NCBI GenBank assembly: GCA_964487795.1
Contig: CAZASI010000002.1
Span: 180,349-244,348, forward strand
Direction of reading: 5' to 3'
Length of the DNA stretch: 64,000 nucleotides
Origin: an uncultured Gammaproteobacteria bacterium
GTDB lineage: Bacteria > Patescibacteriota > Patescibacteriia > Patescibacteriales > Patescibacteriaceae
Below the pieces are notes generated by a model that saw only the letters and a program-made list of their open reading frames with translations, did no database searches and had not been told where the DNA came from. Positions within the stretch are counted from its first letter, which is position 1. Each line of letters opens with the position of its first letter. Made by a program: the position numbers and the translations under genes. Positions 5,391 to 11,362 of this stretch are shown piece after piece.

Positions 5391-6070
5391 CGCAGGGAAG
5401 TAAATAAAACTGCTTTGCGACCGGAAGGTTGCTCGGTAGGAGAGTAGTCATTAACAGCCTCAAAGAAATTTTGATATCCGTATCGATTGTTTTTTCCTCC
5501 TTGTATACCCGGATCTTGAACGATAAACTCCTGTTTTTTATCATCATATCCAGAAATCACAACAACGTGATAGTCTATATCCGTTCCTTTGTAAGGGGAA
5601 TTAAGTAAAAGTCTTACGTCAACCGGAGCAATCACGGGTCTATTTTCAGCAATTTCTTTCTTGATGTCATTAAGTAGGGGATTTAGAGATACGGTTCCTT
5701 GCCAAGAAAGCTCAGCCAAGTTAACTATTTCTGCGATTCTTTCCATTGACTCATCTTTGCTTACACCAAAGCTTTTTTCTTTAACTGCTAATATTTTTAA
5801 TATTTGATTTTCGGCTTGTGTTGGAGTAATTTTATTACCGTTGTAAAAATTGTCAGTTATAACTATACTTGTTTCTTCACAAGCATTAAGCCAGGGCTCT
5901 TGCCAATTTTCTTGAGGCGCCTGCGAACTAAAAGGCATAGTGAGGCTTTTAGATCCTGGTGTTTGATCTTTTGTTGGGCTAATTGTTTTGTATAGCACAA
6001 AGAAACAAAATCCAGCAATTGCCGTTAGAACCAAGTAGAGTAGATATTTAATATAATGTTTTTTATGCAT
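5387..6070 (-). CDS. Peptidase C39-like domain protein (N-terminal membrane anchor)
   Basis: FSSQAPQENWQEPWLNACEETS (catalytic Cys context) and DYHVVVISGYD...FIVQDPG. Paralog of 6144-6950. Confidence 0.65.
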   Translation of the reverse strand: MHKKHYIKYLLYLVLTAIAGFCFFVLYKTISPTKDQTPGSKSLTMPFSSQAPQENWQEPWLNACEETSIVITDNFYNGNKITPTQAENQILKILAVKEKSFGVSKDESMERIAEIVNLAELSWQGTVSLNPLLNDIKKEIAENRPVIAPVDVRLLLNSPYKGTDIDYHVVVISGYDDKKQEFIVQDPGIQGGKNNRYGYQNFFEAVNDYSPTEQPSGRKAVLFTSLR

Positions 6071-8245: not shown

Positions 8246-8845
8246 TTGTTTAAAGCAATTAGATACATCTGGGGCTTCTACTTTAGCAAAGATCACTGGC
8301 CCAAAACTAAAAGTGACTTCAAGGATGCGAGAGAACCATTGTTGGTGGCGCTCTTGGCCGTAGTAATATGGTACATCTTTGTCTGGGGGACAATCAAAGT
8401 TCAACCGGAAAATACTGAAATTGTATCGTTAATGGTCGGTGCGGTGATGGTTTTCTCAGCAATCATGCCTATAGTTACTATTAACCGAGTCGCAGCACAA
8501 TTCGATGGGATTGTGACGACTTCCTTTCAATGGAAAGCAAAGAAAGAGGGGGATGATGGAGAATCGTATTTTATGAATTTTTTGGCAAATTACACACCCC
8601 GTATTGATTTAAGGACTCATTTATTTCTTGTAATTACATCGATGTCGGCGATATTTTCATCAATGATACCGCCCTATGAACAATTTTACACTGGAGCATT
8701 TTTTGTTTTTATTATCACCTTGTTCCATTACTATTGTTTAGTAGTCGCTATTAAATTGGATAACCCAAACTTAAAAGCATTAGGTGTGCCGGAGAAATGG
8801 ATTAATAGATTGAAGGAATTAGGCTTTAAGGTCAATGATGTTTAA
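8246..8845 (+). CDS. Hypothetical integral membrane protein
   Basis: TTG start 7 nt after AAAGGAGA. About 5 hydrophobic segments. No recognisable motif. Confidence 0.6.
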   Translation: MFKAIRYIWGFYFSKDHWPKTKSDFKDAREPLLVALLAVVIWYIFVWGTIKVQPENTEIVSLMVGAVMVFSAIMPIVTINRVAAQFDGIVTTSFQWKAKKEGDDGESYFMNFLANYTPRIDLRTHLFLVITSMSAIFSSMIPPYEQFYTGAFFVFIITLFHYYCLVVAIKLDNPNLKALGVPEKWINRLKELGFKVNDV

Positions 8846-8850
8846 ACAAT

Positions 8851-8881
8851 AAAAAAAGCCGAGTAGCAATACTCGGTTTTT
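8851..8881. terminator. Bidirectional intrinsic terminator
   Basis: A7-CCGAGTA-gcaa-TACTCGG-T5. Confidence 0.8.
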
Positions 8882-8887
8882 GAATAG

Positions 8888-9028
8888 AAAAAACCTGTCA
8901 CATGGTCGTGGCATATCCTAAGTAGGGGATAAGCTTCGGAGTGTGCGACAGGTCTAAACAACACCTGGTAATTTTCCCTAAAACATTATAGGAGGAATTC
9001 ATATAATCTTTAGTTTTGTTGACCAGGT
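8888..9028 (-). ncRNA. Candidate ~141-nt sRNA: two long hairpins, anti-SD (CCUCC) apical loop, U6 terminator
   Basis: Predicted +1 at A9028, 7 nt after the -10 box. Hairpin 1 spans 9028-8963 (ACCUGGU/ACCAGGU, CUAAA/UUUAG, AUUAUA/UAUAAU, loop UGAAUUCCUCC). Hairpin 2 spans 8953-8893 and is followed by U6 (8893-8888). No ORF. Confidence 0.5.
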
Positions 9029-9034
9029 AAAAGA

Positions 9035-9063
9035 ATAATACAACAACACCTTAAATGTGTCAA
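9035..9063 (-). promoter_or_regulatory. Sigma-70-like promoter of the sRNA candidate
   Basis: Minus strand: TTGACA (9063-9058), 17 nt, TATTAT (9040-9035). Confidence 0.5.
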
Positions 9064-9177
9064 CGTATCAGGGGAGAGTTTAAAAGCCTGTATTTTCAAG
9101 ATTACACCACGTCGCACAATGTAACTTATACGACATACCATATAAAGCAAAACCTCCTGTTTAATACAACAAGAGGC

Positions 9178-9828
9178 TTAGGCTGTGTTTTTCTTTTGAT
9201 CTTCTCTGTATAAGGTACATAATCCTGCTACTCCGCACCATAATGCTAATTTATAGACTCCAAGTGAGTCTGTATTATGAAAAGCAATTTGATGCCATAT
9301 TTGATGAGGTTTACGGTTATCACGCTCATAAGTCGAGTCTTGATGGTAAAATTCATTTACACTGTGCGGTCCTATATCAACTCCGTTGTTCAAATAGGCT
9401 ATAAAGTAGCCTTGAGAGATCATCTGGAATTGGTATCCCCTATCAAATTTCAATTTTTTATCATGTTGAATTTTATTTAACGCTTCAAATAAAACTCGTG
9501 ATAATTGATGGTCAATCCTGCTCGGTTGATTTTTTAAGAATTGACTGAGCTTCTCATTAAACATATTAGCACCACAAAGAAGGAGTTGGTCCTTTGGAGA
9601 TTTGTCAAAATCCCAGAATATTGAATTAATGACGCGTAATATATCAGAAACAGGGTAATTACGCGGATTAATAATTAAACGTAAGCACTCCCCCTCTACT
9701 TTACTTGGAAAAATTGAGAAGATTTTATGATGATAATCTTCAAAATATTTTTTATTTACAAGAAAAATTATTTCTTTTCTTTTAAAATCCCAAAGAAAGT
9801 CATACGCTATATCCAATTTAGGTTCCAT
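9178..9828 (-). CDS. Hypothetical protein (216 aa), orphan
   Basis: ATG at 9828 is preceded by GGGGGAGAG and overlaps the stop of the upstream ORF (ATGGAACCTAA), which suggests translational coupling. No motif recognised. Confidence 0.6.
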   Translation of the reverse strand: MEPKLDIAYDFLWDFKRKEIIFLVNKKYFEDYHHKIFSIFPSKVEGECLRLIINPRNYPVSDILRVINSIFWDFDKSPKDQLLLCGANMFNEKLSQFLKNQPSRIDHQLSRVLFEALNKIQHDKKLKFDRGYQFQMISQGYFIAYLNNGVDIGPHSVNEFYHQDSTYERDNRKPHQIWHQIAFHNTDSLGVYKLALWCGVAGLCTLYREDQKKNTA

Positions 9829-10147
9829 TGCTCTCCCCCGGTTTCCATTTATTATATGTTTCGCCGTTATCAAATGATATGAGAAATTTACATTCTTTGC
9901 CGAATTCCCCCTTATTAAGAGTTATTCCTAAAAGCTCTGGAATTTCAATTACTGGCAATTCACGTCCTTCAAACATTATATGGTGAAGCTGTGAATTAAA
10001 GGGGCCAAAGTTCCCATTGTCTAGTTGAAAAGAGATTTCACTATTTAAGGGAGTTGAAAATGGATATACAAAATACCGTGGTTTTCTTGATGCTTGTTTT
10101 TTGGTTACCTCAAGAATTTCTTCTTCTGGTTCATCTGTTAATTTCAT
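9818..10147 (-). CDS. Hypothetical protein (109 aa), orphan
   Basis: ATG lies 10 nt after AAGGAG (10163-10158). Has its own promoter upstream. Confidence 0.6.
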   Translation of the reverse strand: MKLTDEPEEEILEVTKKQASRKPRYFVYPFSTPLNSEISFQLDNGNFGPFNSQLHHIMFEGRELPVIEIPELLGITLNKGEFGKECKFLISFDNGETYNKWKPGESNGT

Positions 10148-10188
10148 TGTAAAAGTACTCCTTACTTCTTTAGTTATTAATTGAGCAT

Positions 10189-10217
10189 AATATAACGTAT
10201 CGAGCAGTATGTGTCAA
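10189..10217 (-). promoter_or_regulatory. Sigma-70-like promoter of the 9818-10147 / 9178-9828 operon
   Basis: Minus strand: TTGACA (10217-10212), 17 nt, TATATT (10194-10189). Its extended -35 TTGACACAT is identical to that of the sRNA promoter. Confidence 0.5.
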
Positions 10218-10218
10218 T

Positions 10219-11085
10219 TTAGGCCGCCATTGGGTAGTTATAAGTTTCTAATTGATTTATAGACTCTAGGTTCTTTAAATATTCAGGGTTATCAGAATGA
10301 GTTCGTAGTTCATCAACTTGCGAAACTAGTTGCTCAATAATACGATTAAAGATTAGGGACTCCCCTTCTGTTTTATTAGTTAAGTCTGAGCAATCAATAG
10401 AATTAATTGCATTGTCTAAGTCAGCTACAGAAAACCGTAAAAATAATTTTGGTACGTTAGTTAGTTGTTTTTTAATAATTTTGCCATTATCCATTCCAAA
10501 GCCATACTTAATTTTTTGACCCCCTCTTTCAGCCATTTTTATCGCCCATTGCTTTTTTTCTTCGAGCGCTGTATCTCGTTCATCATTATTGTATATATCT
10601 TCATGTAGATCATCAAAAGCGCAAATCACCGCGCCGGTTTTTTTATTAACAATAATGTTATCAACACCGCGATAGTCATCATAGGTACTTGCTCGGGCAA
10701 TAATATAATCGTCACCAATAAATTTAGACATAATATATGTTGATATCATTTCAGCTAATTCACTCTTACTTTGAGATCGTTTATCTTTAAATTCTGCCCG
10801 CATTGCATCACTAACCTCTTCTTCGCTTTGCAAAGAATATTTATTCATAATCCAAAGTCCTTCTTTATGACGAATCCATTCCTTGTCTTTTAATAAATCA
10901 TCTTTATTGGCATTGTGTCCCTTCATGCTTACACAGCAGTCGTCAGACAAGAGCTTAGTGCCAAGTTCTTGATTTGTTTTTTGGGAAACTCTCTGCAACG
11001 CGACACTTAACTCTTTTTTAAAGCGTTCAGTTTTCTGAGTAATTGATTCATTTTTGCTAAAACTTATATTCTCTTTCATAGGCAC
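10219..11085 (-). CDS. Hypothetical protein (286-288 aa), orphan; probably leaderless, starting at ATG 11079
   Basis: Long ORF with no recognisable motif. The -10 box TATACT ends 6 nt before ATG 11079. GTG 11085 is the alternative start. Confidence 0.65.
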   Translation of the reverse strand: MPMKENISFSKNESITQKTERFKKELSVALQRVSQKTNQELGTKLLSDDCCVSMKGHNANKDDLLKDKEWIRHKEGLWIMNKYSLQSEEEVSDAMRAEFKDKRSQSKSELAEMISTYIMSKFIGDDYIIARASTYDDYRGVDNIIVNKKTGAVICAFDDLHEDIYNNDERDTALEEKKQWAIKMAERGGQKIKYGFGMDNGKIIKKQLTNVPKLFLRFSVADLDNAINSIDCSDLTNKTEGESLIFNRIIEQLVSQVDELRTHSDNPEYLKNLESINQLETYNYPMAA

Positions 11086-11212: not shown

Positions 11213-11362
11213 ATGTTGGACGAACTCAACGTCAACAGTCTTATGAGCCTTGAGGGCGACGAAGACATGGACGAAGAGGAAGAAAACGGCGACGACTCCT
11301 TGGAAGAAGATGAAGAAGGAGAAGACGACGGCGAAGAGAGTGGCGATGAGGCCGCTGTCTAA
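11213..11362 (+). CDS. Hyper-acidic 49-aa micro-ORF (25 D/E, no K/R/H); coding status uncertain
   Basis: Translation: MLDELNVNSLMSLEGDEDMDEEEENGDDSLEEDEEGEDDGEESGDEAAV. Lies between a promoter and a hairpin. No SD. GC-rich codons (GAC, GGC) are atypical for the window. Confidence 0.3.
   Translation: MLDELNVNSLMSLEGDEDMDEEEENGDDSLEEDEEGEDDGEESGDEAAV

Follow-up and report, generated by a model that had tools for sequence, protein, structure and literature searches.

Does the intergenic region at positions 8888 to 9063 of the 64,000-nucleotide (nt) stretch of contig CAZASI010000002.1 analysed here (referred to as the window) harbour the gene of a small regulatory RNA (sRNA)? A preliminary description had proposed that it does, and that this RNA represses translation in trans through an exposed loop complementary to Shine-Dalgarno (SD) sequences. 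In our view, and judging from sequence comparisons, the region probably holds a real small non-coding RNA gene that keeps its C-rich loop in at least four related lineages. The fuller proposal, namely an independently transcribed C-rich-loop sRNA of ~130-170 nt that belongs to one sub-clade of probable Patescibacteria and pairs with SD-like stretches of mRNAs, stands in our estimate at about even chances. The dominant and most strongly conserved feature of the same intergenic region is a dif-like Xer site, and the relationship between the two elements forms the second part of the question. The window itself is a bacterial chromosome segment of 39% GC with housekeeping genes (MreB, MurB, MurG, RpoA and FtsQ). 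Its relatives, found through the VTT/DedA gene, are metagenome-assembled genomes, the nearest of which are labelled Gammaproteobacteria and the next ones Paceibacterota, Minisyncoccia and Saccharibacteria; the lineage probably belongs to the candidate phyla radiation (Patescibacteria), to which gene content and the more distant relatives point, and the Gammaproteobacteria labels are probably wrong.

The anatomy of the putative gene agrees closely with what had been described (Table 1). On the minus strand, the hexamers TTGACA (9063-9058) and TATTAT (9040-9035), separated by 17 nt, form a sigma-70-type promoter, which is rated 11/12 in a promoter scan and would start transcription at approximately A9028. 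This base lies six nt after the -10 hexamer and is the first base of hairpin 1, a three-tier structure composed of a basal stem (ACCUGGU/ACCAGGU), a middle stem with a bulged G (CUAAAG/UUUUAG) and an apical stem (AUUAUA/UAUAAU), and closed by the 11-nt loop UGAAUUCCUCC (9001-8991) that exposes CCUCC. A linker of 7-9 nt connects it to hairpin 2 (8953-8893), which runs straight into U6, with the U-run ending at 8888. The 141-nt RNA has a minimum free energy (MFE) of -43.5 kcal/mol, compared with -25.5 +/- 3.2 kcal/mol for dinucleotide-shuffled sequences (z -5.66, with 0/200 shuffles as good). Beyond the two hairpins described earlier, two others are present in the vicinity: a bidirectional terminator (8876-8859) and a terminator-like hairpin (9179-9150) at the stop codon of the upstream gene.

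A comparison with Rfam, which the preliminary description had recommended, returned no known family for the candidate RNA, neither at the gathering score across the whole window nor at E <= 10 in the interval 8600-9400. Resemblances to group II intron domain V, the signal recognition particle RNA, RNase P and 6S RNA were dropped because Rfam gave no match. ARAGORN finds no tRNA or tmRNA in the window, so that these 64 kb are, as a separate observation, devoid of both tRNAs and Rfam family matches. A repeat or miniature inverted-repeat transposable element was rejected as well, the element occurring once in the window, as was a phage origin: there is no DNA similarity to phage records, and a motif scan of viral contigs came back empty.

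The predicted anatomy recurs in related genomes. Because the flanking proteins of 216 and 199 amino acids (aa) have almost no relatives in homologue searches, homologues of the RNA were sought by synteny, using the VTT and DUF305 genes as anchors; the loci retrieved are referred to here by L numbers. A covariance model based on the three more closely related sequences and scanned against ~420 kb of related loci scores 151.8 bits in L004, 120.6 bits in L040 and 25.7 bits (E 0.0055) in L017, which is equivalent to L026, L042 and L043. These three and the window are the four lineages to which we refer below. A fifth, partial lineage is represented by L002, which carries dif, the spacer and the -35 hexamer, and by L050, which carries the 3' half of the RNA including the 3' arm of the terminator and U6. 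Both are contigs of one genome from sample SRR22387796, and both break inside the RNA gene (L002 at its end, 8832, and L050 at its end, 4614), which points to heterogeneity among strains, or else to a problem of assembly, at just this element. Contigs that end before or within the RNA and hold no complete copy are L002, L041, L044, L045 and L050.

Promoter, loop and terminator are all conserved among these homologues. The -35 (TTGAC[AT]), the -10 (TAnnnT) and the 17-nt length of the spacer are kept in the four lineages, while the sequence of the spacer drifts. The 16-mer UUCCUCCUAUAAUGUU is identical in all four, despite overall identities to the window RNA of 82%, 66% and 63%, and, with up to 3 mismatches allowed, the window contains no further copy save two near-matches of the kind expected by chance. 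UUCCUCC is the sequence presented in the apical loop of hairpin 1 in every homologue, with CCUCC at RNA positions 34-38 (36-40 in L017, the extract of which starts 2 nt further upstream), and the 16-mer reaches beyond the loop to take in the 3' arm of the apical stem, which is paired. An internal promoter based on the conserved TATAAT within the 16-mer was considered and rejected as the principal explanation, there being no conserved -35. The terminator stem ACCUGUCRCA/UGUGACAGGU and its U-run are kept in the four lineages with G.U to A-U changes, and the second C-rich loop within hairpin 2, UAUCC-CCNNNNNN-GGAUA, is retained in L004, L040 and L050, whereas L017 has CCCUCCCCC in its place; a pair adjacent to this inner stem-loop shows a compensatory C-G to U-A change. 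Even the bidirectional terminator holds its position in L004, L040, L017 and L050, with differing stem sequences.

Conservation of the fold extends to helices whose sequences have changed. Independent MFE folds of the four homologues recover the three-tier hairpin 1 (z -2.1 to -2.9), and the full-length folds have z-scores of -5.66, -3.87, -4.39 and -2.74; the hairpins and the loop predicted for the window are thus present in related genomes. The basal stem reads ACCUGGU/ACCAGGU in the window, AUCUGG/CCAGGU in L004, ACUUGGG/CCCAAGU in L040 and CUCUC/GAGAG in L017, and the middle stem CUAAAG/UUUUAG, CUAAAUG/UGUUUAG, AAAUA/UGUUU and AAACU/AGUUU, respectively. In L040, the basal stem has undergone compensatory C-G to U-A and U-A to G-C changes, and in L017 it is wholly replaced, so covariation is seen at the level of whole helices. 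Among the three alignable sequences, 88.5% of the cells in paired columns can pair, as opposed to 35-46% with slid partners. All this is maintained while the flanking genes on both sides vary from lineage to lineage.

If the RNA is made as its signals predict, it would fold such that the apical loop of hairpin 1 presents the invariant UUCCUCC, and the Rho-independent terminator hairpin, with its second C-rich loop, would end the transcript. The C-rich loops would then pair with purine-rich, SD-like sequences in at least one mRNA encoded elsewhere in the genome, and this pairing would lower the translation or stability of the target, as in the case of RsaE/RoxS of the Firmicutes. In RsaE/RoxS, the C-rich motif is duplicated, with one copy in a hairpin loop, and the copies are reported to bind SD regions and block initiation (PMC6158497). 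The likeness comprises an RNA of ~100-150 nt with its own promoter and Rho-independent terminator (here recognised from sequence signals alone), two unpaired C-rich motifs, of which one lies in a hairpin loop, and action without an obvious dedicated chaperone. In contrast to RsaE/RoxS, the RNA described here belongs to another phylum and has a narrow distribution, its motif is CCUCC within UUCCUCCUAUAAUGUU rather than the RsaE repeat, and there is no homology in sequence or structure. Since no Rfam family matches the region, the resemblance is one of functional analogy only, and an anti-SD repressor mechanism is reasonable by that analogy, with the motif itself as the feature that points to it. 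Regulatory sRNAs appear not to have been described for Patescibacteria in the literature searched. These bacteria have tiny genomes and few recognisable regulators, and a conserved sRNA candidate with promoter, seed and terminator would therefore be a useful entry point into the post-transcriptional control of this phylum, as well as a concrete sequence to seek in metatranscriptomes.

Table 1. Features of the RNA gene and its surroundings, and homologues of the RNA. Coordinates refer to the window unless a locus is named.
Feature	Coordinates	Strand	Remarks
Sigma-70-type promoter of the RNA	9035..9063	-	TTGACA, 17-nt spacer, TATTAT; hexamers and spacer length conserved
Predicted 141-nt non-coding RNA	8888..9028	-	From predicted +1 A9028 to end of U-run; 5' end from promoter geometry
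Hairpin 1, three-tier (basal, A-rich internal loop, middle, apical)	8963..9028	-	MFE folds
Apical loop UGAAUUCCUCC exposing CCUCC	8991..9001	-	In loop in four homologues
Invariant 16-mer UUCCUCCUAUAAUGUU	8982..8997	-	3' half of loop, 3' arm of apical stem and GUU
Hairpin 2, predicted intrinsic terminator, stem ACCUGUCGCA/UGUGACAGGU, then U-run	8893..8953	-	Fold, conservation
Inner stem-loop UAUCC-CCUACUUA-GGAUA, second C-rich stretch	8914..8931	-	Within hairpin 2
Second, bidirectional terminator: A-run, CCGAGTA-TTGC-TACTCGG, T-run	8850..8881	both	Common with the convergent plus-strand gene
Possible KOPS-like motif AGGGGAGAG (CTCTCCCCT on the minus strand, 9078-9070)	9070..9078	+	Between dif and -35, pointing at dif
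dif-like Xer site ATGTCGTATAA-GTTACA-TTGTGCGACGT	9109..9136 (core 9111-9134)	-	Inverted arms, invariance, GC-skew switch
288-aa operon protein	10219-11085	-	Large uncharacterised family
Window RNA	9028-8888	-	Reference
L004 RNA	7679-7541 (L004)	-	82% identity to window RNA; genome-wide nucleotide identity ~88%
L040 RNA	5480-5350 (L040)	-	66% identity to window RNA; DUF305 protein 82% identical
L017 (= L026/L042/L043) RNA	266-427 (L017)	+	63% identity to window RNA; DUF305 protein 60% identical

Several observations weigh against this interpretation, some against the RNA gene as such and others against its proposed mode of action. Bulk conservation hardly stands out: the RNA identities of 82/66/63% are only slightly above the 73/61/59% that the same pairs of genomes show for an ordinary stretch of intergenic DNA, the shuffled baseline being 50%. 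Promoter-like sites are common in the AT-rich 7 kb scanned (39 found versus 25 expected). The search for homologues and covariation that had been recommended yielded homologues in four lineages, but the covariation is not significant: double changes affect 3/36 pairs across 3 sequences, a score that 65/500 column shuffles reach in what is an underpowered comparison. Sequence-based alignments that include L017 (MAFFT/RNAalifold) give no consensus structure, because the stems have been rebuilt, and the covariance-model alignment misplaces the L017 basal stem; the support from L017 is therefore one of helices rather than of alignment columns. The antisense strand folds equally well or better (in L017, -50.2 versus -36.4 kcal/mol). 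As folding energy is thus uninformative on the strand, the minus-strand assignment is based only on the promoter and the T-run, there being no T-run after the hairpin 2 stem on the plus strand. Finally, the covariance model finds no homologue in L005, L046-L049 or 25 other dif loci among the ~420 kb scanned. Present in the L017, L040, L004 and window lineages but not in distant dif-bearing relatives, the RNA is therefore confined to a narrow clade.

As regards the mode of action, the loop was compared with the 147 translation-initiation regions of the window, and the best duplex (-14.1 kcal/mol) is matched by 64% of shuffled loops. An extended complement to the 16-mer is found neither in the window nor in the ~420 kb of fetched loci, except for the gene's own antisense. 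A bare CCUCC would match generic SDs and confer no specificity. The preliminary description had stated that many genes of the window use GGAGG SDs, which overstates the case, since 4/46 occurrences of GGAGG precede a possible start codon and the common SD form consists of GGAG and AGGAG cores.

The points raised against the gene as such are those that would speak for a region without a functional RNA, that is, an intergenic region at a convergent terminus which has accumulated terminator hairpins and a fortuitous or vestigial promoter, and which looks conserved by recent ancestry: its bulk identity is near that of another intergenic region, promoter-like sites abound, the covariation lacks statistical significance and the antisense strand folds equally well. 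Set against this, the invariant 16-mer and the promoter hexamers persist in distant homologues at 63-66% overall identity, the same three-tier hairpin is formed from very different stem sequences, and the element stays in place where its neighbours on either side are exchanged for other genes. We consider this explanation unlikely.

The points raised against the mode of action lead to another alternative, to which we assign a similarly low probability: the RNA is real but acts on a protein, either by titrating, as a decoy or sponge, some RNA-binding protein or ribosomal component with specificity for a 16S-like CCUCCU, or in some other structural role. The invariant block UUCCUCCUAUAAUGUU contains CCUCCU, which we take to be identical to the universal core of the 16S rRNA 3' end. 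No specific mRNA target was found in the DNA screened, and the conserved block includes bases of the paired 3' arm, an unusual trait in a motif that acts as a seed and nothing else. On the other hand, the gene neighbourhood, which varies by lineage, points to no protein partner, and the missing target is weak evidence because only 64 kb of the genome were screened.

The RNA that we regard as probable lies next to a site of a quite different nature. Between the RNA promoter and the 216-aa gene, the core GTCGTATAA-GTTACA-TTGTGCGAC (9134-9111) consists of two inverted arms and an asymmetric 6-bp centre. As a 24-nt sequence (GTCGTATAAGTTACATTGTGCGAC), it is invariant in the window, L002, L004 and L005. 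In degenerate form the site can be written GTCGYAYAA-GTTACA-TTRTRCGAC. A degenerate probe detects 25 further metagenome loci with one copy each, bringing the number of loci to ~30 in all. The layout is 9(-13)-6-9(-13), with arms that are symmetric at up to 13/13 positions, and the centre GTTACA is invariant save for GTTATA in L046-L048 (dif at ~5628-5651). Conservation spreads to its surroundings: in L005, the genome of which is 65-70% identical to that of the window, a block of ~70 nt that directly precedes the -35 has 90% identity. The cumulative GC skew of the window peaks at 8-10 kb, where gene orientation switches from plus to minus, and in 7/7 loci with enough flanking sequence a positive skew on the left gives way to a negative one on the right once the site is oriented by its centre. 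The site occurs once in the window within 3 mismatches, as it does in each metagenome locus. A palindromic site that is invariant across ~30 loci and lies at the switch of GC skew and gene orientation is therefore to be read as a dif-like Xer site at the replication terminus.

This reading fits the definition of dif/Xer sites, which have two inverted arms around a central region of 6-8 bp (PMC1914069, PMC2958812) and are found at the GC-skew switch or replichore junction in non-coding, highly conserved DNA with conserved flanks (PMC1914069, PMC2958812, PMC3325230). The site shares its inverted arms, asymmetric 6-bp centre, non-coding setting and position at the skew switch with the dif sites of single-recombinase systems (difH/XerH, archaeal dif/XerA and difSL/XerS); in contrast to those, it is known from sequence alone. 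Its near-symmetric arms suggest a single Xer recombinase system. The inner arms CGCATAA...TTATG match what we take to be the E. coli dif core. A scan of 10 suitably sized open reading frames (ORFs) of the window revealed no recombinase; in L049, an FtsK_SpoIIIE Pfam match is found in a called gene ~1 kb from the dif-like site. An integrated Xer-exploiting element (IMEX) was rejected as an explanation, there being no second dif-like site within 3 mismatches. In the literature searched, we came across no paper that describes dif in this phylum. A sequence-defined site of this kind allows the replication terminus to be located in fragmented assemblies of these bacteria, and it implies an Xer system with a single recombinase.

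Is the RNA then part of the dif system? In all four lineages, 71-72 bp separate the dif core from the RNA -35, in spite of the many indels that the RNA itself tolerates, and the RNA is found only next to dif. We take the fixed distance as plain synteny, a functional link being a slender possibility by comparison, and the position of the RNA 71-72 bp from dif at the terminus as its location rather than its function. The alternative would be that the element works with dif or the terminus, as a transcription unit with an accessory or insulating role, shielding the Xer site or the loading of FtsK or modulating them, with its hairpins acting as terminators or as DNA features. Besides the constant distance, it could draw on the linkage of dif and RNA persisting while all else around dif is in flux, on a KOPS-like motif between the two (see below) and on the strong terminators that bracket dif. 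However, most dif-bearing lineages have no RNA, which is therefore dispensable for dif function. In addition, the stems have been rebuilt with other bases while pairing was kept, which indicates a constraint at the level of RNA rather than a DNA-binding site, and nothing comparable was found in the Xer/dif literature searched. Such a role is, to our mind, quite unlikely. The more specific idea that a terminus-resident RNA might modulate Xer/FtsK chromosome dimer resolution, or protect or insulate dif, in bacteria with small genomes has a lower probability still; we know of no Xer/dif system with an RNA partner.

The motif between dif and the -35, AGGGGAGAG, may be an FtsK-orienting one. FtsK-orienting polar sequences (KOPS) and SpoIIIE recognition sequences (SRS) are G-rich orienting motifs, and it is with their consensus sequences that AGGGGAGAG was compared. 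Like KOPS and SRS, AGGGGAGAG is a G-rich, octamer-like sequence found on the leading strand, directed toward dif and strongly strand-skewed (16:0 for GGGGAG). All 16 copies of GGGGAG in the window are on the leading strand and none is on the lagging strand; they read toward dif and mostly do not serve as an SD. Codon bias may contribute to this count. A relaxed CTCTCCCCT motif lies downstream of the oriented dif in 18/30 unique loci, as opposed to 0/30 on the other strand. The case for AGGGGAGAG differs from that for KOPS and SRS in that it comes from 64 kb of one genome, in which codon or coding-strand bias may have a share.

Returning to the RNA gene, the preliminary description had raised the possibility that the region is only the 3' untranslated region (UTR) and terminator of the upstream 216-aa gene (9178-9828), with no internal start. 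The region does lie downstream of that gene on the same strand, and read-through is possible. In the window and in L002, however, the 216-aa gene has its own terminator-like hairpin at the stop codon (9179-9150), and dif and the conserved promoter are situated between it and the RNA. In L004 and L040, the gene upstream is a different one, yet RNA and promoter are kept there, as they are in L017. A 3' UTR is consequently very unlikely, and an independent, non-coding, structured transcription unit, as predicted from these signals, is supported, if short of proof.

The region had also been said to contain no ORF. Taken literally this is incorrect, as a 34-aa ORF (9002-8898) starting at an AUG in the loop and a 40-aa ORF (8964-8842) starting with GTG are present in the window copy, though neither is conserved: the 34-aa ORF stops after 7 codons in L004 and is absent from L040 and L017, the two ORFs amount to 7 and 16 codons in L004 and to 0 and 5 codons in L040, and the longest sense ORFs vary from one homologue to the next in both frame and length. 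With an AUG that lacks an SD and a 34-aa peptide that is not hydrophobic, a small protein or type I toxin can hardly be what the element encodes.

On the other side of dif from the RNA lies an operon (9178-11085, minus strand), for which co-regulation with the RNA had been hinted at. The extended -35 sequence TTGACACAT does occur exactly twice in the window, at the promoters of the RNA and of the operon, but this is not significant (~0.76 occurrences expected by chance, P(>=2) = 0.18). The CAT extension of TTGACACAT is not kept in L040, L017 and L002. Both promoters read TTGACACAT in the window and in L004, and both carry TTGACT followed by other sequence in L002 and L040; the sharing cannot be separated from common descent. 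Moreover, the operon also adjoins dif in L005 and L046, both without the RNA, and operon and RNA are therefore not a unit.

The operon had been called an orphan, which holds in part: its first protein (288 aa) has 628 representative clusters at E <= 1e-3. Compared with L002, L004, L040 and L005, the operon is cassette-like with conserved ends. Between genomes, identity is ~90-95% over its internal promoter, 5' UTR and ATGAAA start (~10217-10140) and over the ~30 terminal codons of the 216-aa gene, whereas the interior has a protein identity of 59% or is replaced, with proteins of 109 aa and 216 aa in the window and a single one of 206 aa in L004 and L040. It thus has the character of a hypervariable gene cassette, the conserved ends of which abut dif.

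The 288-aa protein has invariant residues at E112, D136, D137, D142, D158 and K177. Its alignment-based AlphaFold model is of high confidence (predicted local distance difference test (pLDDT) 92.9; predicted template modelling score (pTM) 0.90), and a single-sequence model with a pLDDT of 37 was discarded. Searches of Pfam, of the PDB by both sequence and fold, and of predicted viral structures gave nothing significant, only sub-threshold hints to restriction-endonuclease-fold proteins. A role of the neighbouring genes in defence was considered and rejected, as there are no PADLOC, PHROG or NCBIfam matches; a HamA Pfam match, weak and below cut-off (E 0.004), is noise because it is shown by only 1/41 family members. 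The 288-aa proteins thus form a large, uncharacterised family with a confident fold and no structural relative. These by-products of the analysis (the dif-like site, the FtsK-orienting candidate, the variable cassette and the protein family) may matter more than the RNA.

Two further genes of the neighbourhood are worth recording. The 199-aa membrane-like protein (8246-8845, plus strand) has no homologue but itself in 5.8 billion proteins, and its slot between DUF305 and the RNA is variable, the gene being absent from L004 and L017 and a 210-aa gene being found in L040. Just upstream of the VTT/DedA gene lies a short, extremely acidic ORF (...EGDEDMDEEEENGDDSLEEDEEGEDDGEESGDE...; 11213-11362, plus strand), at the position of which a small gene is called in relatives (in L004 at ~9825-10004).

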